A stretch of DNA of 36,509 nt, taken from contig JWZX01003355.1 of assembly GCA_001275005.1 (NCBI GenBank), positions 1-36,509 on the forward strand, given 5' to 3'. The stretch comes from Chrysochromulina tobinii. Taxonomy: Eukaryota. Under the pieces are notes generated by a model. The model was not told the DNA's origin and did no database searches. It was given only the letters and a program-made list of their open reading frames with translations. The translations under genes and the position numbers were made by a program. Shown piece by piece: positions 21,001 through 34,500 of this stretch (positions are counted from its first letter, which is position 1; each line of letters begins with the position of its first letter).

Positions 21001-24000
21001 GTCCATCAGGTTGGAGCATGTCTTGGCCGTGTAGTTGAGATTGGTGATGCCGCCGGAGGGGCGCGCCGTCACATTGAGCTCGCCAACGCGCGGTGGGAAG
21101 ATCTGCGACCCTTCCGCGTCGACGATGGTGACCACGAACGTCGAATCGTCCTTCCATTCGCCCGTGTAGTCGGCACCGAGCGGGTGCGAGAACTCGAACA
21201 GAGCGTCGACGAGCGCCTTGCCGCTCAGCGAGCTGCTGCCCAGCGGGTAGGGGACCACCTCGGGCGGGCCGCCCTTGACACCCGCGCCGTTGGCCGGATA
21301 CACGAGCGTCGACGGCTGCTGGTAGTTGCTGTGCGTCACGCCCCGGTTCGTCTGCTGGTCGAAGACGATGGTGAGCACGTCGCCGGACGAGAAGACGGCG
21401 TCTCCATTATTCGGATCGTCGGCGACGAAGCGGATGATCCGCGGCCCGTCGCCCGCCCTTCCAAAGTCGCCTTCCAAACGAGGCAAGCTTGCGAGCGCCG
21501 GCGTGCCATCAGTGAGCATCGTGCTCGCGTCCAGCCGCGCTGCGGAGCCGCTGAGGGTGGGCGCGAGGCAGTAGGGGGTGCCTCGGAACTCTGCCGGGCA
21601 CGAGAGAGACTGCACGCGCACATCGCGACGGAGTGCGACGCGCGTGCCAGAGTCCGCAAAGGCGGTGCCGTAAGGCCTGTAGCTGGGGGCGAGGATCCCT
21701 GGCTGCGGCGCGGCCGAGCCGTTGATGACCGTGACGAGGAAGGTGGAGTCATCGAGCCAGCCGGTCGAGTACTCGTGGAAGAGAGGCTGCACGATGCGAC
21801 TGCCCGACGCGTCGAAAAAGTCGAAGAGACGCGCGAGCTGGGTGTTGAAGAAGCCGTTGCCCGAGCACTGCGACGAGAAGTCACAGTTGAGGACTCCCGA
21901 GTACTCCGCGAAGGCGTTGGCGGCGCGGTCGGTGGGCACATCGAAGCGAAGCGCGATCGTGTCCCCTGCTCCGGGGATGAGGTCGCGGTTGACGAAATCG
22001 GACGCGATCACCTCCACGAGCCGTGGCGGTGTGGGAAAGGTCTCGACGCGCTCGGCGACACCGAGGAGCGCCGCCTCCATGACGAGCAGCGGCGCCGTCT
22101 GCGCCAGGTTCGTCATGTTCGCCTCACGCGCAATCCGTAGCATCGTGTCATACGGCCGCGGCGCGTACTCCGGATCGGGATACGGCTCCGTCACGGTCAC
22201 CACGAACGTCGAGCCGTCGGACCAAGCGCCGCTGTACTGGGCGCCCAGCGGGGCCGAGACGCTGATGAGCGAGTCAACATACTCCTTGCCGCCCGATCCG
22301 CGCTGTGCACAGAAGGGCAGGTTGTTCACAGAGAGGGCCTGCTGCAGGCATCGGCCAGGGAGCACCGCGCGGTCGAATTGCAGCACGAGCTCATCGAAGG
22401 CATCGTAGCTCGCGTTCGCGTTGTCGCGGTCATGTATGAAGAAGCGTAGCAGGGAGGGCGCCGTCTCGTTCGCGCCAAAATCGCCCACGCTCAGCCGGTA
22501 CGATGCACTCGAGAACTCGGACGTGCGCGGCGCGTTCTGCAGCCGGCCGGCGACGGTGACGAGGGCGCCCGAGGAGCCACCCACGCGTGGACCAGTGCCT
22601 GCACCGGTAGGATCGAGGATGGTGACGACAAAGGTGGAAGTGTCGAGCCACGCGCCGCTGTAGTCGGCTCCGAGTGGCTCGGAGAAGGCGAGCGTCGTGT
22701 CCACGAACGCCCTGCCGCCCTCGCGCCTGCCCAAGTCTGTGGGGAGGTCGAACTGGATGGCGAGCGTGTCGTTGCGCGACCACAACGGGTCCTTGAGGTC
22801 CCACGTCTGCGAGTCGTACCGGATGATCGAGGGGGGGGTCATCGTGCCGGGATTGCCCGTCAGCGCCGAAGTGGCGCGGCACCAGCGCGAGCGCTCGTTC
22901 GCGGTCTTGATGTCGCCGGCGACCGAGACTGTGACGGCGCCCAAGACGGCGCCCGGGCTGGACGGCATCGTGTGGCCACTCACGTCGACCATGGTGATGA
23001 GGAAGGTGAGCGGGTCGAGCCAGCGACCGTTATAGCGCGCACCGAGCGACTCGCTGAAGCGGAAGAGCCGATCGACCAGATCGCGATCTCCCGCCTCGGT
23101 TGCGAGCTCGTCGTACCTGATGAGGGAGGCACTCAGAGGTCATTCGAGGCACCCAGAGGTCATTCGAGGCACTCAGAGGCAGTCACGCCAGCTTCTTGTC
23201 GTCGTACCCCTCGACCCTCGAGATAGCGCGATTCGTTTCCGAGTCGAACGTGATCGTGAGTGTGTCGCCGTCCGAGAAGACGACGTCGCGATTGTCAGGG
23301 TCCGCGAGTACCGCAGACAAGATCTTAGGCGCGACCACCCCGGCCTCACCCGTCATCGAGAGGAAGCCCGCGGAGATGGGCGAGGTGCGCGGCGTGTTGC
23401 GAAGGTCTCCTGCAATAGTGAGGGTGGAAGTGAAGCCGCCGCCCCACAAGCAGCGTGCGACCTGCGGCATCGAGGGGAGCTCGGTCAATCCAGATCCCAT
23501 CCAGATCAATCCAGATCCCATCAAGATCAAGGGCAAATCGAGGATAGTCAAGGTCAATCAAAGGGACTCACCTGCGTCATCTCCTGTTGAGAGAGGGGCT
23601 GCGACTCCGACACAAACGCAGCCAAGCCCCTGCCCGTGAGCGTGACACGTGTCCCCCCGCGCTTGGGCCCCGCCTCGGGCGTGATGCCGGAGAAGACGGT
23701 CGGCTGCACGTAGTACGTGTAATCGAGGCCGGTGTCGATGTACACGGCGTCGTCGCTCGAGAGCAGCAGATGCACGTCGCCACTCTGACCGACGGGCGGC
23801 GTGGCGCAGAGGAGCCGCTCCCTGCTCACCTGTGGGGATATGGCGATGGCGCCGTGGTGAGCACTTGCATGCAGGCGTGGCGCAGAGGAGCCGCTCCCTG
23901 CTCACCTGCAGCACCGGCATCACCACCTCGCGCGAGCTGCCGAAGCGGCAGAAGGCGATAGGGCCCGCATCGAAACCAAAGCCGCGGAAGGTGACGAGGG

Positions 24001-27000
24001 TTCCTCCGGTGGTCACACCCCCGGGCGGCCCGCCGTTCACAGTCACCTGGTCGATTCGCAGGCCGTAGTAGCGGAATCGGTACGTCGTGTCCACGTACTG
24101 CTGGGCGTTGAGCGTCACGAGCACGAACGCGGCCTCGGCCTCAGCGATCGCCGTCTGATCATTGCCATATTTGGGTATGGTTGCCATATTTGGGCGAGCG
24201 GCACACGTTCAGTGAGGATCAGAGGCACTCAGGGGCCATCAGAGGGCATCGGAGGCACTCAGAGGGCATATGAGGCCATCAGAGGGCATCGGAGGCCATC
24301 AGAGGGCATCAGAGGGCATCAGAGGGCATCAGAGGGCATCAGAGGGCATCGGAGGGCATCGGAGGGCAGCACGCACCTGATTGGGCGAGCGGCACGTCCA
24401 CCGCTCAGGTAGCAGCTCGATCGGCGGTGTGTCGGCGATGTTATTCGACGTGACGAAGCGGCAGCTCGCAAACTCGGTGTTGCCCCCGAGCCCGTGGAAG
24501 CCCTGCCCAAAGATGCTCATGATGTAATCAGAGGTAATCAGAGAGGTAATCAGAGGTAATCAGAGGACTCACCTGACCAAAGATGGTCATGATGTAATCA
24601 GAGGTAATCAGAGGTAATCAGAGGTAATCAGAGGACTCACCTGCCCAAAGATGGTCATGATGTAATCAGAGGTAATCAGAGAGGTAATCAGAGGTAATCA
24701 GAGGACTCACCTGCCCAAAGATGGTCACCACCGTGCCGCCCGAGAAGACGCCTGCCTGCGGCAGCACCGACTGCACCGAAGGCGGGTTGTAGTACGTGTA
24801 GTTCTGACCCGTCCAGCGCGGATCGCGCCCCGACTCGAGGGCGAAGCCGTTGAGGGCGAGCCAGAGCTGACGCGTATCGGTCAACTTCGTGGGTGGGCTC
24901 TCGCACACGGCGGCATGCCCGCCGCCGAGCGCCGTGGCGCGCGTGATCGTGTAGCGAGGGTTGTACGCGGCGTTCGTCGGCTCGCCGTACTGGCACGAGA
25001 GGTACGCGCCGCGATCGAGCGCGTCGAATCCAGTGCCGACGAGGGTGACGAGGGTACCGCCTGTCCGATGACCGCCCGAAGGGATGATGCGCGCTACGTA
25101 CGGGTTGTCATAGTATTGGAAGTTGAGGCCCGTCGCACCAAAGTCGATGGCGTTGAGCGAGAGGGTGAGGTTGACCGTCTCGGCAGCCCCGATGCGTGCT
25201 GGCGGCGCGAGGCACACGATGCGCCGATTCGAAAGCTCGAGGGGCTGCGACTCAGGCGGCGGCAGGCTGAGGGTCTGTGCCAGGCTCGCGGCCAGCATGT
25301 CCACGATCGGGGCCTGCCAACGGCAGCGCACGAGGCTCGACGAGAATGCAAGGAAGCCCGAGCCCACGATCGTGACTGCCGTGCCCCCTCCCTTGGGACC
25401 ACCCACGGGGGACAGCCGGACGAAATCCTCGTTGGATGAAACCCCGGCGCCACTCCCCTTGGGGCGGGGCTGCTGATAGTACTCGAACGTGAAGCCGGCG
25501 ATCGGCTCGAAGTCGGTCTGCGCGCCATTGAAGGAGAGGGCGATGCTCACGACGGCGGGCTGTGCCGCCGGCGGCGTCGTGCACACGATCATATGGCGCT
25601 CGAGGACCTCGGCTGCCACGAAGTTGACGAGCCCAAACCGACACAACGCGTTCCGCGGGTCGGTCGAGAAGACGTCAAACGGACCTCCTAGGATGGTGAC
25701 CGAGGTGCCTCCGCGCGTCGGACCGCCTGTCGGCTCGCTTGCCGTGTAGTTCGTCGGCTGCTCATAGTACAAGAAGGAGACGTTGAGCGCGTACAAGTCG
25801 ATCGCGTTGAGTGCGAGCGACATGTTGCGCCGAGCCGTCGTCGACTGGGGGAACGAGGCGACGACGATGCGATTGGGCGTGAGCACGCTCGGTGTCGTCA
25901 GGTTCGTCAATGACGTGTCGCCCCACCCGACGCGCACGTCACTCACGTTGATGGAGGCGTACGCTTTGAAGCCACTCCCGCCCAGAGTAACGACGGTGCC
26001 GCCGTCGACCCGCCCGCCCGTTGGGTGGATGGACGTCACCGTGAACGGCTGCACGAAGTACGTGAAGTTCAGCGCCGTGTCGGGCGTCACGGCCACATAG
26101 TCGCGGTCGTTGAGCGCGATCTCAAGGCCCACGACGGTGGCTTGCGTGAACGGCTGAGCGGCTGTCCTGCACCAGAGCTGCGTGTCGTCCAGGTACTGCG
26201 GGATGGTCACCTCCGTCCCATCCCATCGGCATCGCGCGTTCCCCGCCTGCGCGCCCCCCAGTCAACGGCCGCATGCAATTAGAGTGATCATCAGCGGTCA
26301 TCAGTGGTCATCAGTGGCCATCAGCGGCCATCCGAGCTCATCCGCGCTCATCAGCGCCACTCACCTGCGCGCCCCACCGGGCGAATGCCGCGAGGCCCTC
26401 GCCATGGATCGTGATCACCGAGCCGCCGAGGGTGGGGCCCGCCGTCACGGGGGTCAGATGCGTGAGGCGCGTCGGCTGCACGAAGTAGGCATACTCGAGG
26501 CCGTTGGTGTGGTAGTCTTGGCCGTTGAGGGCGATCTCCATGTCGGTCACCACCGGCGACGAACGCACCGGCGAGCGGCACACGACGCGCATGGGCGTGA
26601 GCACCGTCGGTGTCTGGAAGCTCACCAGAGGCGTCACGGCGTCCTCCGCCTCGGTCACATTGGTAGACAGGCAGGGGCGCAGCTCGACATTCGAAGTGCT
26701 CAGAGGCGCCGAGCCGTCGAGGTAGGGAGGTGCACTGCCCAGCCGACGCAGGCGCGTCTGCCCCGGACGGATGGAGATGCGCAGCCCCGAGCCTGATGAC
26801 GGGAGCCATCAGATAGGATCAGAGGCCATCAGAGGCCCTCCGAGGCCCTCCGAGGCCATCAGAGGCCATCAGAGGCCATCAGAGGCACTCAGAGGCCATC
26901 AGAGGCCATCAGAGGCCATCAGAGGCACTCGGAGGCACTCGGAGGCCATCAGAGGCCATCAGAGGCACTCGGAGGCACTCAGAGGTGACGAACCGCCTTG

Positions 27001-28495
27001 GAGTAGATTGGTAGGCGCGGCCTGCGAGTCGCCGCCCGACACGGCGCCTGGCGTGACGCGTGCGTTGATGGCCTTGAGGGTGAGGCGACGCGTGTCGAGC
27101 CACTCGCCCGTGTACGTATCAGCCAAGCGCACAGGCCCGCCTTGCCCCCTGCTCGAGAAGACGAAGAGTTCGTCCACCTGGCGCGAGAGCCGCAGGCGAG
27201 GGTATGAGGGCGATCGTGTGTGAATGAGGGCGATCGTGTGTGAATGAGGGCGATCGTGTGTGAATGAGGGCGATCGTGTGTGAATGAGGGCGATCGTGTG
27301 TGAATGAGGGCGATCGTGTGTGAATGAGGGCGATCGTGTGTGAATGAGGGCGATCGTGTGTGAATGAGGGCGATCGTGTGTGAATGAGGCCCATGCAGCT
27401 TCGATCCAAGGTCATTCGCGCCCCGCCCAGGCATGACTCCGAGCCACGCCTCGGAGCCATGTAACGTACCTGTGGGGAGTGAGGGCGTCGTGATGAGCAC
27501 TTGCATGCCGAGCCACGCCTCGGAGCCGTGTAACGTACCTGTGGGGAGTGAGGGCGTCGTGATGAGCACTTGCATGCCGAGCCACGCCTCGGAGCCGTGT
27601 AACGTACCTGTTCACCGGTGAGTTGGCGCGAGAAGCCGTTGAAGGCGGTGGCCGCGAGTTGGATGCCGTTCGTTGGTATATCGAAGATGACCGAGAGAGG
27701 CACCGCGCCTGTGAGTGCATCGGCTTCGCACCCGTCCGGCTGCGAGCCCACGCGGAACGCTACGATCGAAGGCTTGTCGGTGAACCGGCACCGGATCAGT
27801 GTGTCCGCGAGGTCGATGTGGGACTCGTTCAGGTAGCCTCCCGTGAAGCCGATGCCCTCGATCACGACCTCGGTACCGCCGGTGACGGGCCCGCCCGTGA
27901 TGGCGGCGTTGGTGAAGTTTGCGGGTGCCGGGTAGTAAATGTACGTGAACCCCGTGTCCATCAGGTTCGGCTCAATGAACGTCGTCCCTACTGTCGTCCC
28001 AGCGAGCGTTATGTAGCGCAGCGAAAACCACAGGCTGACTAGGCCCGACACGCGCGGGTACGACGGGCACTTGAGCATATCGACGCGGCTGATGCTGGCC
28101 GGGACGTCAAAGGTGGCGCGCAGCTCGGGCGTCACGGTCACCTCGGTAAGCAGCTGGGTCGCCTCCGTAAAGTATTCGGGCGGCACCTCGGGCAACGACG
28201 CCTCATCGTCGCTCCAGCCCGACCGGTCGGCCTGCTGTCGCGCAAGGATGGCCTGCTCCCAGTCCTGCGGATTGCCCCAGTGGCATTTCACGCGGTTGAG
28301 CACGCCGGTGCTGATCCGGCTGAACTCGCGGCCGACGATCGTCACGGTCGTGCCGCCCTGCACCGGCCCGCCGGTCGGGTGGGCCGAGTAGACGGGTGGC
28401 GCTTTCTCGTTATGGCTCGTGCTCCGGCTCCCAGGAGGGAGTATGAGCAGCAGCGGCAGCAGCAGCAGCGCTGTGGGAGCACGCCTGCGCGCCAT
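1..28495 (-). CDS. Giant secreted/cell-surface repeat protein with IPT/TIG domains and ~44 copies of an uncharacterised acidic ~130-150-aa module; 3'-partial (>8,800 aa)
   Basis: ATG at 28495 in CCACCATGG context, followed by signal-peptide-like MARRRAPTALLLLPLLLILPPGSRS. Inferred exons: 28495-27608, 27177-26994, 26792-26365, 26246-24711, 24502-24377, 24154-23906, 23829-23572, 23461-23208, 23116-19046, 18890-18200, 18113-17139, 17065-8162 (one extra base at 8749-8752), 8021-3522, 3352-<1. All joins are GT-AG and phase-consistent, and they stitch the long minus-strand ORFs (481, 514, 1320, 2784, 1523 aa and others) together. IPT signature P..GP..GGT.VT..G.GF...CR[FW]...C..P...LNG..F. Confidence 0.85.
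3353..3521 (-). other. Intron 13 of giant gene (5' exon copy plus type A acceptor cassette)
   Basis: Starts GTTCGTCGCGCCC; next exon starts GTTCGTCACGCCC; ends TTGCCTCCCTCATCAG; contains 10-bp and 24-bp tandem repeats. Confidence 0.8.
8022..8161 (-). other. Intron 12 of giant gene
   Basis: GTACGC...CTCCTCAG, phase 2, filled with degenerate CTGAT repeats; joins SGQ-YMTTP. Confidence 0.7.
17066..17138 (-). other. Intron 11 of giant gene (17-bp 5' exon copy plus type A cassette)
   Basis: GTGCGCCCGCGAGACGC occurs at the intron start and at the next exon start; ends TGATTGCCTCCCTCATCAG. Confidence 0.85.
18114..18199 (-). other. Intron 10 of giant gene (27-bp 5' exon copy, 3 mismatches)
   Basis: GTGCGCTCCGCGTCCGTTGGCGACCCA versus exon GTGCGCTCTGCGTCCATTCGCGACCCA; ends TGATTGCCTCCATCATCAG. 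Confidence 0.85.
18891..19045 (-). other. Intron 9 of giant gene (CTGAT minisatellite)
   Basis: GTACCTGATT...GATGACAG, phase 2, joins RNR-WDLL. Confidence 0.75.
23117..23207 (-). other. Intron 8 of giant gene (9-bp 5' exon copy plus type A cassette)
   Basis: GTACGACGA at both the intron start and the exon start; ends GAGTGCCTCCCTCATCAG. Confidence 0.8.
23462..23571 (-). other. Intron 7 of giant gene (3' end resembles upstream exon end)
   Basis: GTGAGT donor; ends GATGCCGCAG versus exon end GATGACGCAG. Confidence 0.8.
23830..23905 (-). mobile_element. Intron 6 of giant gene: introner-like unit (32-bp exon duplication plus type B cassette)
   Basis: GTGAGCAGGGAGCGGCTCCTCTGCGCCACGCC is identical to the next exon start, followed by TGCATGCAAGTGCTCACCACGGCGCCATCGCCATATCCCCACAG. 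Confidence 0.7.
24155..24376 (-). other. Intron 5 of giant gene
   Basis: GTGCGT...GATCAG; 10-bp CTCTGATGCC array; internal copy TGCCGCTCGCCCAA of the upstream exon end. Confidence 0.75.
24503..24710 (-). repeat. Intron 4 of giant gene: three tandem intron units (70/68/70 bp)
   Basis: Each unit is GTGAGTCC-(TCTGATTACC)n-...CATCTTTGG[G/T]CAG, ending in a copy of the upstream exon end; internal AG|GT at 24641/24640 and 24573/24572. Confidence 0.85.
26247..26364 (-). other. Intron 3 of giant gene (11-bp 3' exon copy)
   Basis: GTGAGT donor; ends GGGGCGCGCAG, the same as the upstream exon end. Confidence 0.8.
26793..26993 (-). other. Intron 2 of giant gene (10-bp minisatellite)
   Basis: GT donor at 26993 (an in-phase GC donor at 26996 is also possible); CTCTGATGGC array; ends CCCGTCATCAG. 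Confidence 0.7.
27178..27607 (-). other. Intron 1 of giant gene, containing two 69-bp type B units and a 20-bp minisatellite
   Basis: Splicing GEQ|VDELFVFS restores the repeat-module consensus; units at 27607-27539 and 27538-27470. Confidence 0.75.
27204..27389. repeat. 20-bp minisatellite (TGAATGAGGGCGATCGTGTG), about 9 copies
   Basis: Near-perfect tandem array with no spacers, inside intron 1. Confidence 0.95.
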
Positions 28496-28832
28496 GGTGG
28501 GGCCTCGGTGAGCGCTCCGCTTTGCTTGGAAAAGGCACAAATAAGCGTTGAAGTGGGCGGTCAAAGTTTGCAGAGTGCGGGGTGCTTTGGTAGCATGTGG
28601 TAGCCGGCGGCCCGGTGACTCGTACTGAATTCTTTGACACTACTGTACGATTTCCCTGAAGAAAGTAAGAGCCGAGCCGTGTGGAACAATTGAAATGTCC
28701 ACGTACTCGTGTACTGTTGTACATTGTGTCTTGGAACTTACCCCGGAATTTGCCGGTTGCAACACGGACACAGTTTCGTCAGAAGCGCCGCGTCAAGCAC
28801 ATCGAGGTCCTGTGCGACCTCCGAGAAAGCTC
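28496..28832. promoter_or_regulatory. Short head-to-head intergenic region, probable bidirectional promoter
   Basis: 337 bp, visibly more AT-rich than the flanking coding DNA, between two divergent ATGs (28495 minus, 28833 plus). No specific element identified. Confidence 0.45.
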
Positions 28833-31085
<2,253 letters not shown>

Positions 31086-31530
31086 GCACGCGTTGGAGCA
31101 CGAGGAGAGCGAGAGAGATTTGTAACCGACCAAGCTACCCTACCAATTGGCGGGACAGCCATACTCTCACGAGGAGAGCGAGCGCTCTACCGCTCCTTGA
31201 TTGCTTACCGCTGAAGACAACGACCTATCTAACGCCATCGCCGCAGCGTTCCAGAAAGAAGAAACAGCCGTGCGTGTATCTATAGATAACGAGTGGAGGT
31301 GCCGGGGCGCAGGGGGCGAGCGTTCTCATGCGATGCAGATAGAGTTGCAGATTCCGCTTGCCGATGCGTCGCGTGTTGGACGGGAAGTTCGATGCTACTG
31401 TATACAACAAAGCGTCACTTAATCTAAGACACACCCGGGTCCGGGGGCCGCGGCCGGGCCGGCCACGACGGTTGTCAGGCGCGGGGCGTCTCGAGACCGG
31501 GTTGCACTAGAGTGCTAGAGTGCTGACACG

Positions 31531-34500
31531 TCACCGAAAGCCTAACCCCAACCGCGTGCCTGGCAGCTGCGGGGACTCGTTCCTGGGCGGCGGCGAGTTC
31601 CGAGCGTTCTGCTGGTTGAGCTGGTCCCACGCGTTGACCGGGATCTCCTTGGCCGTGGCATAGCGAATGTGCATTGTGGTGGCGCCGAGCCCGACGGCGC
31701 GCGCCGCGCGCATCTCGACTGTCTGGACTTCGTGCCAGTTCGCCTTCCGCGCGGACGGGTGATGGACCTCCGGCTGCACGCGAGCGCTGTACTGACCGGG
31801 CCCCTTGACAGGGGTCCCATTGGGTAGGATGTAATGCGGCTCCGAGCGCGCGCTACTCGAGGGCGGCGGGTGCGGCGCCGCGTCTCGCAGCCCTACCGGT
31901 AGGCTCGACGCGAAGGCGCCGTCGCGAGCGCTCGCGCTGCCGCCGCCTTTGGCTGTACGCCGGTGACGCGGCGAGCTGCCCCCGAGGATGGCGGCCGCCG
32001 CGGCGCCATCGGAGGGCGCGTGGGGGGGCATGCCCGCAATCTCCGCCTCGGGAGATCCGCGTCCGGAGTGGCGGCTCGACGGGAGCGGCGGGAGCGCTGC
32101 ATCGGGCGCGCCGTGCGCCGCATAGGCTGCCGAGGGCGGATGGGCCGTCGCCGCCGGCGCCTGCTGCCGCTGCTGGTGCTGCTGGTGCTGCTGGTGCTGC
32201 TGGTGCTGCTGGTGCTGGTACTGGTGCTTCTGCCCGGGTGGCGAGGCCGATCGAGGGCGCACTAAGGCTGCCTTATATAGGAGGCCAGCGAGGGTGCCCT
32301 CGCGCTTCCCCTCGAGCTTCGCGGCCGCGTCAGAGCGCACCCCGGCCTGCGCTGCCAGGTGCACCCGCAGCAGGTGGAGCGAAGCGAGGGCGGACTGCAC
32401 CAAATGAGAGCGCTCAGCGGCGGCCGCCACTTGCGTGCCCTCGAGCTTCTCCGTCACGTGCTGTAAGTTCAGCTCGATGCGCTGAAAGTCCGCTTTGCGC
32501 GCCTTGAGCTCCTTGAGCATGTCTTGCCGTCGAGCCTCGAGGCGTGCCTCGTTCGCCCTCGCGCTCTTAAGAGAGTTCTCGGATTCCTGTGCCTTGCCGT
32601 GCGCCGAGCGCACCTCCGCCACCGAGGCCGCCACGACTGCCTTGTAACGGTCGAGGAGGATGCGTAACCGATCGGCGACGGGCGCATTCGGCGGCTCGAG
32701 CAGCGTATGGATGCTCATCAGCCAATCGGGCAGCGGCTCGCCGGAGCGGCCCGTGTAGTACCTGATGAGGGAGGCAATCAGAGGTCATCAGAGGTCATCA
32801 GCCAATCGGGCAGCGGCTCGCCGGAGCGGCCCGTGTAGTACCAGCTATCCGAATGAGGCACGATCGCGGCGCCTTTGCTCGCCGTCTCGCCGGCGCGTTG
32901 GCGCAGCTCGAGCAGCTCCTCAATCGCCTCGCGCACGACGCCGTGGACGTCGTCGAGGTGCTGTGTGGAGCGCACCGCCTTCGAAACGGCCTCACCGAGC
33001 TGCGCCCCGAGGCGCTCGGCAGCCGCGACCGCCTGCGCCGCCCTCTCTCGATACCGCCGCTCCTCCTTGAGCTCATCGTCGGCGTCGTCGAGCGTGTGGC
33101 ACAGCGCAATCTGCGCCACCTGACGTGCGGCGAGGTAGCCCTTGAGCTTGGCGACCTCGCTCGCATGCACCTCCTTGAGCATCGCGAGATCGGCGAGATG
33201 GCGCTGGCTCGAGCGCCGCCATCCGCCGCCGCATGCGCGTCCTCGATCGTGCGAAGGGTCGCGCGCGTCGCCTCGTGCGCCGCCGCCTCCTGTGCCGTCG
33301 CCGCTGCCGCCGCCGCCGCCGCCGCGTGAGCAGCCTCGAGCTCGAGCTGGAGCGTCGCGACCTGCGCCCCGTGCGCGCTGATCTGCGCGCTGACCTGCGC
33401 ATGTAGCGCTTCCAGCTCGGCCGTGTGGTCCACCGGTGGCGGCTTGGCGCGCTCCGCCTCGAGCTCGTCGCTCACCTGATGAGGGAGGCACTCGATCTAA
33501 TTAGGGATGCAATCAAAGGCAAACAAAGGCCATCAAATGGCCTCGAGCTCGTCGCTCACCTGGCGCAATCTCGCCTCGAGCTCCGAGATATGGAGCTCAA
33601 GCGCACGCTGGCCCGCCGCGCCCTGCTCGAGCGCTGTGCGCTGCTCCTCCACGAGCGCCTCGAGCTCGCGCAGCCGCGCCGCCGCCGCCTCGCGCCTCGC
33701 CACCTCTTCCGGATCCTCCTCCCGCACCTGTGGGGAGGAGAGGGCGCCGTGGTGAGTACATGCATGCTGGGAGAGGGAGACACGGATCCTCCTCCCGCAC
33801 CGTTTCCACAACGAGCGGCGCGTCGAGCGAGGGGTCCTCGGGCGGCTCGGGTGGTTCGACGACGCCCTCGAGCTCCTGTGAGCCGCGCAGCCGGCGCGCG
33901 AGCCGGCGCAACTCCCACCGCAGCTCCTTGGCCACCCGTTGCGTCGCCGCGTCCACGTCCGCGATCACCTGTGGGGAAGGGTGAGGCGCCATGGTGAGCA
34001 CTTGCATGGCACCAGCCGCAGTAGGGATCGTCCACGATCACCTCGGAGCGAAGAATCAAGTGCACTCAAGTGCAATCAAGTGCAATCAAGTGCAATCAAG
34101 TGCAATCAAGTGCAATCACCTCGGAGCGGAGCTGTCGCGTCGCCTCCTCCGCGGCGGCCGAACGCTCAGCGAGTGCGATCGCCTCGGCCTCCTTGGTGCC
34201 CAAGCGCGCGAGCGCCTCGTCGAGCTGGGCGCGCACCTGTGGGGAAGGCGAGGCGCCGTGGTGAGCACATGCATGCTGGCCGAGGCGCCGCGCGTCGAGC
34301 TGGGCGCGCACGGCGTCGGTCTCGGCACGCAGATTCGCGGCCGTCGCCATCGCCTCGAGCGCCTCGATCTCGTGCTGCGCCGCCAGCGCGGCAGACGCCT
34401 TCTCCGCCGCCGCCGCCGCGGACGCTGCCTTGGCGAGCTCGTCCTTGAGGACTTTCTCGCGCTGCTCGGCCTTGACGGCGCGCTCCTTCTGCAGCTCGAA

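Follow-up and report, generated by a model that had tools for sequence, protein, structure and literature searches.

Elements that create introns offer the leading account of how introns are gained in bursts, and recursive splicing, where it is known, serves very long animal introns. The introner-like elements described from Symbiodinium and from Polarella glacialis (classes 4/5 and 6/8/10) carry a 3′ splice site and obtain the 5′ splice site from the target-site duplication (Roy et al. 2020, bioRxiv 10.1101/2020.10.14.339549); the words 'tandem', 'nested' and 'pre-existing' do not occur in the accessible text of that preprint. Work on introners of Chrysochromulina sp. and other algae gives haptophyte introners a length of ~70 nt and places the duplications of earlier-described introner families at 3–9 bp (Gozashti et al. 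2022, PNAS, PMC9860276), with neither 'tandem' nor 'existing intron' in its main text as available. In Daphnia, repair of staggered double-strand breaks is reported to bring about both the gain and the growth of introns, young introns being lengthened by secondary 'staggered-then-staggered' events within them (Li et al. 2014, PMC4202315). Fungal complex intervening sequences, including stwintrons, contain duplicated or abutting donors, and duplication of a donor element has been proposed as their origin (Ag et al. 2020, Lipomyces, PMC7138796; Fekete et al. 2025, PMC12403724). Across open-access main texts in the introner, haptophyte, stwintron and recursive-splicing literature, no account was found of introner units in tandem or of an introner that had landed on a donor already present, and no paper was found that combines intron gain, tandem duplication, AGGT and direct repeats.

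The locus described here lies in the window, a 36,509-nt stretch of Chrysochromulina tobinii DNA (contig JWZX01003355.1), in a gene for a secreted-looking IPT/TIG-repeat protein. The gene is on the minus strand, as are all features given below. Exon 1 (27608..28495) runs from the ATG in an open frame that starts MARRRAPTALLLL... and ends ...GGTGAACAG (Pfam TIG PF01833, E 2.1e-07), and RNA contigs span 27606–28514 over it. The evidence from RNA and DNA runs consists of assembled short-read Logan contigs. In those of five RNA runs (X13, X14, X15, X17 and X18), and in 0 of the 2 DNA runs (X1 and X12), 27608 is joined directly to 27177, the joint being recorded as 27175>27606 with 430 nt skipped and a cut of +2. 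Positions 27178..27607 are therefore one 430-nt intron (phase 0, GT...AG), leading into exon 2 (26994..27177, VDELFVFSS...; RNA contigs 26993–27175, next joint 26791>26993), and the 30-mer duplicated within it is intronic, with no small exon. A sequence-only reading of this DNA had proposed that the duplicated target is intronic rather than exonic, and the junction it predicted is the one found in the five runs. The alternative that it had set against itself, a small exon at 27469, fails, since an exon starting there is in no RNA contig.

From its 5′ end, the intron opens with exactly two 69-bp units (27470–27607) and a third 30-bp donor copy, in a layout 30-39-30-39-30′ that is followed by 262 nt more of intron. 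Each unit consists of a 30-bp GTACGT... segment and a 39-bp cassette, its first bases being GT and its last CAG. The 30-mer, GTACGTTACACGGCTCCGAGGCGTGGCTCG, is exact at 27578..27607, where it starts GTACGTTACACGG... and supplies, with its GT, the 5′ splice site consistent with the RNA junction, and again at 27509..27538; the copy at 27440..27469 differs at a single base (window base 27459, C>T in a CpG) and continues into unique intron. These are its three matches at ≤3 mismatches across the whole window, with 0 expected from 100 shuffles. The type B cassette, GCATGC...CCCCACAG, is exact at 27539..27577 and 27470..27508 and has no other match in the window at ≤3 mismatches. These exact matches confirm the arrangement of two units, each of donor-side sequence plus cassette, ahead of a third donor copy that had been noticed by eye; Tandem Repeats Finder reports 27439–27611 with a period of 69, 2.5 copies, 99% matches and a score of 339. 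The 39-nt cassette bears the core of its family (GCATGCAAGTG-CTCAT-...C/T-rich...CCCCACAG), and would provide a predicted branch site (A at 27563 in the first copy), a pyrimidine tract and an acceptor. Downstream of the third 30-mer, which is likely the original 5′ end of a pre-existing intron, come a unique segment (27390..27439) within the 430 nt skipped in RNA, a perfect 20-bp tandem array (27204..27389; 9.3 copies, 100% matches by Tandem Repeats Finder) and the intron 3′ end with the acceptor ...CTCTCGCGCCAG (27178..27203), supported by sequence and by the RNA joint. One RNA contig (X13, record 19) connects a cassette with the third 30-mer and on to 27360; it is short of one 69-nt unit, with a joint placeable over 83 positions, as a collapsed repeat would give. 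A known RNA family or structured RNA was considered and rejected: Rfam gives no family at its gathering score (mir-2060 in the 20-bp array is sub-threshold, 22.5 bits vs 54.5), and the 69-nt unit folds no better than shuffles (z = +0.68).

The cassette is dispersed well beyond this gene. It occurs in at least 140 stretches of metagenome contigs, in 157 distinct contexts among the matches listed, and its summed depth in DNA runs is about 25-fold; in run X1, cassette bins sum to 1537–1842 vs ~70 in the flanks, and the bin that is mostly 30-mer stands at 131. Among the matches listed, a flanking direct repeat (score ≥12) is present in 122 of 149 contexts vs 33 of 148 decoys, with median scores of 22 and 8, which upholds the earlier claim of a real recurrent element flanked by target copies. 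The form cassette-AG/GY-target, with GY also at the upstream copy, is taken by 71 of those 122. Also among the matches listed, target copies are 9–44 nt long (median 27) and the predicted cassette-made introns 57–144 nt (median 76, 10th percentile 69). Because the repeat finder is ungapped, it cuts target copies at indels (L123 and L046, for example). A 5′-truncated retro-copy origin of the cassette is not claimed, the 31–110 nt spread of insert lengths being partly an artefact of that ungapped finder. The family shows the marks of an introner, namely many copies at unrelated loci, splicing at three of the five sites in the window, and a target duplication that supplies one splice site; its variable duplications of 9–44 nt do not match the transposase signature in the literature, where they are fixed at 3–9 bp and/or terminal inverted repeats are present.

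The 30-mer behaves differently from the cassette: it lies near local depth in X1 and is found in 0 of 140 other loci among the matches listed, and is therefore local where the cassette is dispersed. This bears on a reading in which the whole 69-nt unit is a complete mobile intron that landed twice at CAG/G without target duplication, the third 30-mer being a truncated third copy. Two composite family members, L013 and L140, do carry their own GTACGT donor (GTACGTTGATTGCC... plus cassette), and the 69-nt unit starts GTACGTT alike. The near-local depth, set against 25-fold for the cassette, and the absence from the listed loci led us to reject the 30-mer as a mobile part; the third copy, moreover, runs into unique intron and the private 20-mer array. 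We regard this reading as very improbable.

Type B cassettes stand at five sites in the window (23.8, 27.6, 30.3, 33.7 and 34.3 kb), and RNA contigs show splicing at three of them: a 76-nt intron at 23.8 kb, one of 430 nt at 27.6 kb and one of 86 nt at 30.3 kb. The 27.6-kb site is the one case in which RNA shows an intronic target. For comparison, this gene also has a 76-nt type B intron (23830..23905; joint 23797>23874, 76 nt skipped, cut +32, in X13, X14 and X15) whose cassette is flanked on both sides by a 32-bp exon copy (GTGAGCAGGG...). Tandem units occur in this gene with type A sequence as well: at 24503..24710, three ~70-nt units, each made of GTGAGT, 10-mers and a 16-nt copy of the upstream exon end, are spliced out together as a single 208-nt intron (joint 24501>24710, in all four runs X13, X14, X15 and X17).

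The 27.6-kb array is best read as one cassette insertion at an exon/intron boundary followed by tandem duplication of the 69-base unit, with the 430 bases removed as one intron; we give this reading a probability of roughly 60%. The order of events would be as follows. An intron of at most about 292 nt, starting GTACGTTACA, would have existed before the cassette. The 39-base cassette would then have been inserted once, exactly at the exon/intron boundary, copying the first 30 bases of the intron; a staggered break in the DNA, or a template switch, probably led to the insertion, and its fill-in would have made the 30-nt duplication. The second unit may then have been added when the two 30-nt repeats underwent unequal exchange or when replication slipped between them. 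The two units are identical at 69 of 69 positions, including the length of the target copy and the ends of the cassette, while the third 30-mer agrees at 29 of 30. The exact 39-mer is found in 0 of 140 other loci among the matches listed, and target lengths vary; with the identity of the units, this makes a single insertion plus duplication far more economical than two insertions. Here the head-to-tail units are more alike than their dispersed relatives, as in a tandem array. When adjacent cassettes are compared against a set of 206, the neighbour proves to be the nearest relative in 27 of the 51 pairs, including full-unit arrays (L106, L091, L096, L075, L135, L013, L054, L062 and L017), and is not in the other 24, mostly where non-terminal units are without an acceptor tail. 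In many further arrays (L018, L105, L110, L053 and L038 among them) the period boundary falls inside the cassette, an arrangement explained only by plain tandem duplication.

The sequence-only reading had favoured two separate insertions, both directed to existing 5′ splice sites through coupling to the spliceosome or to transcripts. Several observations suit that idea: the target repeat begins exactly at intron position +1; its GT follows the CAG of the cassette in most members (71/122 among the matches listed); wherever RNA gives the strand, 6 of 6 cassettes at the five window sites are on the gene strand; and, among the matches listed, type A repeat words lie mostly in the same orientation as the cassettes (367 sense vs 98 antisense). 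At L082, two cassettes that differ slightly at both head and tail sit at the same G/GT, one with a 24-nt and the other with a 50-nt target copy, an arrangement that looks like repeated use of one site. At 27.6 kb, however, a second event would have had to repeat both the 30-nt target length, within a range of 9–44 nt, and a 39-mer absent from the listed loci, where tails of unrelated cassettes average 35% identity. Selection alone would give a strand bias too. At cassette-made introns (among the matches listed), the exon ends in G at 60 of 71 and in AG at only 28 of them, weaker than the CAG/GT found at 6 of the 7 RNA-supported introns of the host gene. Two independent, targeted insertions are thus disfavoured, and we consider them unlikely.

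Intron transposition by reverse splicing should insert precisely and without duplication, so it was set aside for this 30-nt duplication and for a family in which duplications are the hallmark. Target repeats with a non-GT start also occur (L014, L015, L036, L065, L092 and L097). Target duplications of variable length, which are not predicted for reverse splicing, are a footprint left at the DNA level and lend no support to the proposed coupling to the spliceosome or to transcripts; nor does the 27.6-kb site give evidence of a link between insertion and splicing. That the duplicated target starts with GT is explained most simply by survival, perhaps with some help from microhomology between the ...CAG end of the cassette and (A)G/GT. 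A cassette with a strong acceptor is harmless within an intron only if a donor follows, and survival at a donor therefore needs no targeting. As an order-of-magnitude guide only, 23400–28495 holds 13 exonic AGGT and 57 exonic GGT vs 7 introns, which puts the donors at roughly a tenth to a third of the G/GT sites in this gene.

A bolder version, which we hold tentatively and think doubtful, gives the choice of site to the cassette-spreading machinery itself. It would pick (A)G/GT by microhomology with ...CAG(GT) during staggered-break or template-switch repair and would hit existing donors alike, each hit copying the donor and adding a self-sufficient mini-intron, so that introns would grow as chains removed stepwise. 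If true, such machinery would offer a natural way for an element that makes introns to go on to lengthen them and to duplicate donors, in a process active today in a haptophyte. Second cassettes on existing donors were sought as type A words within 120 nt downstream of the target copy at 71 canonical loci among the matches listed; the three hits (L073, L116 and L139) all have an intervening exon, and the GC-phase coding signal downstream of target copies is noisy across loci.

The count of two full units depends on the assembly, and the short-read contigs neither confirm nor refute it; a zero-unit or one-unit allele was not observed. They fold the repeat into a 99-nt piece with the same 30 bases at both ends, that is, a 69-nt cycle, whose depth is 44 in X12 vs 35–41 in the flanks and 123 in X1 vs ~70, ratios (~1.1–1.25 and ~1.75) that are not copy numbers. 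An assembly artefact could in principle yield the same picture if each haplotype had one unit (30-39-30, the downstream copy carrying either C or T) and the two alleles had been chained. The contigs contain just the cycle and links from exon to 30-mer(C), from cassette to 30-mer(C) and from cassette to 30-mer(T), as two one-unit alleles could give, and the X12 ratio is near 1. Against this, the link that two such alleles require, from 30-mer(C) into unique intron sequence, is in no contig, no other letter is reported at 27459 (min_share 1), and the X1 cycle contig stands at ~1.75 times its flanks; chaining would presumably also require assembly with words of no more than about 35 bases. The artefact is accordingly improbable, more so than paired insertion, and even if true it would leave the intronic target and the cassette insertion standing.

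Within the duplicated intron, an acceptor directly abuts a donor twice, as CCCCACAG/GTACGT at 27539/27538 and at 27470/27469. The 430 nt may be removed in one step or unit by unit, with the same mRNA either way, and stepwise removal would regenerate CAG/GTACGT after each step, as at recursive splice sites. The array is probably tolerated because each cassette acceptor directly precedes a full donor copy. The cassette at 27.6 kb sits on the donor of an intron that was probably already present, and intron-making elements would then be able to lengthen and complicate existing introns besides creating new ones. The long direct repeats left by the cassette make a new unit liable to amplify in tandem and, for the same reason, to be lost precisely.

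Each internal CAG/GTACGT has the form of a ratchet point (a zero-length exon) and would regenerate a 5′ splice site, as in recursive splicing; the animal cases concern very long introns, whereas steps here would be 69 nt and the intermediates are putative. The site offers a clean test case for recursive splicing of acceptor/donor chains in a protist. With the fungal complex introns (PMC7138796, PMC12403724), as those accounts present them, it shares several units at one intron position that could leave in one reaction or consecutively. A stwintron has a splice signal of its outer intron broken up by the inner one, which makes two steps obligatory; in 27178–27607, no donor, branch site or acceptor is interrupted, the units abut, and all GTACGT donors and CAG acceptors are intact. 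The Daphnia insertions (PMC4202315) resemble this one in that the insert is flanked by a direct repeat of adjacent sequence, but their reported repeats are 4–12 bp and their inserts unrelated, whereas here one recurrent cassette lies between longer repeats. As in the algal introners in the main text of Gozashti et al. (PMC9860276), one splice site is carried and the other recruited from the duplication; family 5 of the published Chrysochromulina introners, with its 4-bp duplication, brings the 5′ splice site itself, which places it closer to type A of this window than to type B. The Symbiodinium elements, as described in the preprint, have inverted repeats, and in the cassette, at ~40–50 nt, no terminal inverted repeat is seen by eye. 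The Symbiodinium and Polarella elements share their plan with this one: a multi-copy short element ends in an acceptor, the target copy that follows starts with the G of a donor, and introns are made in one orientation, with the window copies at 23.8, 27.6 and 30.3 kb being spliced. Their duplications are fixed at 4 or 8 nt (GHNN, GHN6), and published intron-making elements leave short fixed target duplications, whereas the tiny type B cassette, in essence the 3′-terminal third of an intron, lies between long target copies of variable length.

On the minus strand, exon 1 closes with ...GGTGAACAG (up to 27608, sequence reading) and is followed by a 30-mer, GTACGTTACACGGCTCCGAGGCGTGGCTCG (27607–27578), and a 39-mer copy of the type B cassette, GCATGCAAGTGCTCATCACGACGCCCTCACTCCCCACAG (27577–27539), both located by sequence reading and pattern search. 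The same 30-mer and 39-mer recur at 27538–27470, and a third copy of the 30-mer, in which a CpG carries a single C>T substitution, occupies 27469–27440 (pattern search). Unique sequence lies beyond it, followed by a perfect 20-bp × 9.3 array and then the intron end, where the sequence reads ...CGCGCCAG|GTGGAC across the start of exon 2 (27178/27177, minus strand). Pattern searches located no other copy of the 30-mer or 39-mer in the window (chance expectation, 0), and Tandem Repeats Finder describes the 27.6 kb array as period 69, 2.5 copies, 99% matches; both confirm the two units at 27470–27607 described in the sequence-only reading. The 20-bp array in the same 430-nt intron, TCATTCACACACGATCGCCC in gene sense (27204–27389, 100% matches), has a 50-nt contig depth of 453 versus ~70 in DNA run X1, suggesting that it is local and not dispersed.

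When RNA contigs were mapped to 23400–34000, runs X13, X14, X15, and X17 each showed a joint across a 430-nt gap, GT..AG on the minus strand, which removes 27178–27607. A second mapping, to 27000–27800, yielded this joint again in X13 and also in RNA run X18; over the same interval it is absent from contigs of DNA runs X1 and X12. The 27608/27177 junction is in phase, falling between two complete codons, and the protein reads ...QLTGEQ|VDELFVFSS across it. No exon starting at 27469, which would have made these ordinary exonic insertions, is present in the RNA contigs. Within the limits of assembled RNA, the duplicated 30-mer is intronic, as the proposal of an insertion upon an existing intron had held, and the 430 nt are removed with the mRNA intact. 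Each 69-nt unit appears to carry a full set of mini-intron signals, and removal may therefore take a single step or as many as three. In X13, one RNA contig lacks one unit, which is compatible with a splicing intermediate and a collapsed repeat alike. Rfam returned no family at its gathering score across the region, and no unusual fold was found for the 69-nt unit. A Pfam TIG match identifies the product of the host gene as an IPT/TIG-repeat protein; the neighbouring gene on the opposite strand encodes a prolyl-tRNA ligase. An open frame of 506 codons (27119–28639, minus strand) extends from ahead of exon 1 through the whole intron with no stop; because 430 is not divisible by three, a transcript that retained the intron would nevertheless have exon 2 out of frame. 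Elsewhere on this strand, positions 1–23300 contain dozens of diverged direct repeats at ~400–1500-nt spacing (families D5–D20), which resemble a very long succession of repeated protein domains encoded by one or more giant genes.

Summed depth over the cassette part of the finding is ~25 times that of the flanks in DNA runs, a bin with mostly 30-mer shows no such excess, and the 30-mer occurs in 0 of 140 metagenome loci retrieved; these results mark the cassette as dispersed and the 30-mer as local. A relaxed core pattern located further cassette cores in the window at 23843–23867 (minus), 30302–30326 (plus), and 33738–33762 (minus), and a metagenome pattern one more near 34252–34270 (minus). 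The 23.8 kb cassette stands between exact 32-bp duplicates of exon sequence, each starting GTGAGC, and this yields a 76-nt intron that is spliced in three of the four RNA runs; the cassette-bearing 86-nt intron at 30.3 kb is spliced in all four, and the 33.7 kb cassette has an 18-bp flanking copy, GTGCGGGAGGAGGATCCG. At eight places around the 23.8 kb intron (23786–24095), the RNA contigs also show alternative letters, which in most runs have roughly half the summed depth; this second version may be an allele or a paralogue.

A search of metagenome contigs with AWGTRCTCAYCACGRCGCC returned at least 140 stretches, and the window and metagenome matches listed comprise 166 occurrences in 157 distinct contexts. 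Among these listed matches, a bracketing direct repeat (score 12 or more) is found in 122 of 149 contexts with enough flank versus 33 of 148 decoys placed 170 nt away from cassettes (median scores, 22 versus 8). A cassette-AG|GY-target layout, with GY at the upstream copy too, characterizes 71 of the 122 listed; at these loci the target copy measured from GY spans 9–44 nt (median 27), the implied intron 57–144 nt (median 76, 10th percentile 69), and the base(s) preceding the donor at the exon end are G in 60, AG in 28, and CAG in 13. The 69-nt unit of the finding thus falls within single-intron range. The remaining 51 are mostly arrays or have a mismatch near the copy start; true exceptions, with a copy start that is not GT and a cassette without a tail, are L014, L015, L036, L065, L092, L097, and L003, the last with its acceptor supplied by the target copy itself. 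Composite introns in L013 (cores at 513 and 587), L140 (487), and L075 join a GTACGT donor and 10-mers of the other repeat element, type A (TGATTGCCACTGATGACC), directly to a type B cassette, and types A and B may be two ends of one longer intron-like element. L091 shares with L082 a near-identical cassette and the same flanking bases (GCTCGCTCA...CACAG GTACTGCACATCG) with a different continuation; these flanks hint that copying could extend past the cassette into the adjoining exon.

The two units of the finding are identical at 69 of 69 positions, including the target-copy length and both cassette ends, whereas the 23-nt tails of unrelated cassettes share a mean identity of 35% (95th percentile, 57%). 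One locus, L082, favours the original proposal of two separate cassette insertions at the donor: a single G|GT in its myosin-like exon (..VLHIGNLTF..) holds two cassettes, whose target copies measure 24 and 50 nt. At 27.6 kb the proposal is not supported: a second insertion would need the same target-copy length, although those of the family span 9–44 nt, and the same 39-mer, yet that exact sequence occurs in 0 of 140 metagenome loci among the matches listed. Arrays, in turn, are common, with 24 listed among 226 fuzzy cores (L109 and L132, resting on 7-edit matches, were discounted). In 27 of 51 adjacent pairs the neighbour is the nearest relative among all 206 cassettes, including full-unit arrays resembling the finding (L106, L091, L096, L075, L135, L013, L054, L062, and L017); the other 24 come mainly from arrays with a period boundary inside the cassette (L018, L105, L110, L053, and L038), an arrangement produced only by plain tandem duplication. 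An [A][B][A'] arrangement with 30-nt direct repeats is a ready substrate for unequal exchange or slippage, giving [A][B][A][B][A'], and we therefore read the second 69-nt unit as a probable local duplication. In the same gene the finding has a mirror-image counterpart that borrows the opposite splice site: at 24503–24710 a type A unit (a GTGAGT donor, CTGATTACCT 10-mers, and 16 nt copied from the end of the upstream exon, which provide the acceptor) stands three times in tandem, ~70 nt each, and four RNA runs show all three units leaving the transcript as a single 208-nt intron. Arrays of two to four 45–51-nt units, each ~23 nt of local sequence plus a cassette core without the acceptor tail, are also seen in L038, L053, L110, L052, and L007; these may be either spliced or in-frame coding repeats.

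The sequence-only reading further took the landing on a donor as a hint of coupling to the spliceosome or to transcripts; we think that the finding does not point there. Duplication of the target is the mark that a staggered break or a template switch leaves in DNA, and reverse splicing of intron RNA does not predict it; target copies that do not start with GT also exist, and both points argue against coupling. The notion that an intronic insertion escapes selection is not valid here, as the cassette introduces CTCAY, which resembles a branch site, together with a C/T tract and CAG. Elsewhere in the intron it would be a competing acceptor, leaving the remaining intron in the mRNA; immediately ahead of a donor copy it does no harm, since CAG|GTACGT is restored, and survivors at the donor are therefore to be expected. 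Exon ends of cassette-made introns are also less CAG-like (13 of 71, versus 6 of 7 RNA-supported introns of this gene, a small sample), which again argues against coupling. Window cassettes all lie on the gene strand wherever it is known, and type A words in cassette-oriented loci number 367 sense versus 98 antisense; such strand bias is equally expected from selection. By a rough estimate, existing donors account for about a tenth of the GGT sites and about a third of the AGGT sites in this gene, and one donor landing among five window sites is unremarkable.

Several known systems share parts of this architecture. Introner-like elements of dinoflagellates provide their own acceptor and take the donor from a duplication of 4 or 8 nt (Roy et al. 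2020, 10.1101/2020.10.14.339549), and a Chrysochromulina genome has ~70-nt introners with 4-bp duplications (Gozashti et al. 2022, PMC9860276). In Daphnia, Li et al. (2014, PMC4202315) describe staggered-break repeats of 4–12 bp together with secondary events inside young introns; duplicated or abutting donors at one intron position are described from Lipomyces (PMC7138796), and nested stwintrons from Xylariales (PMC12403724). The main texts of the open-access papers searched yielded no description of the combination that distinguishes the finding from these systems: a 40–50-nt cassette, long variable duplications, insertion at a donor already present, and tandem multiplication of the unit.
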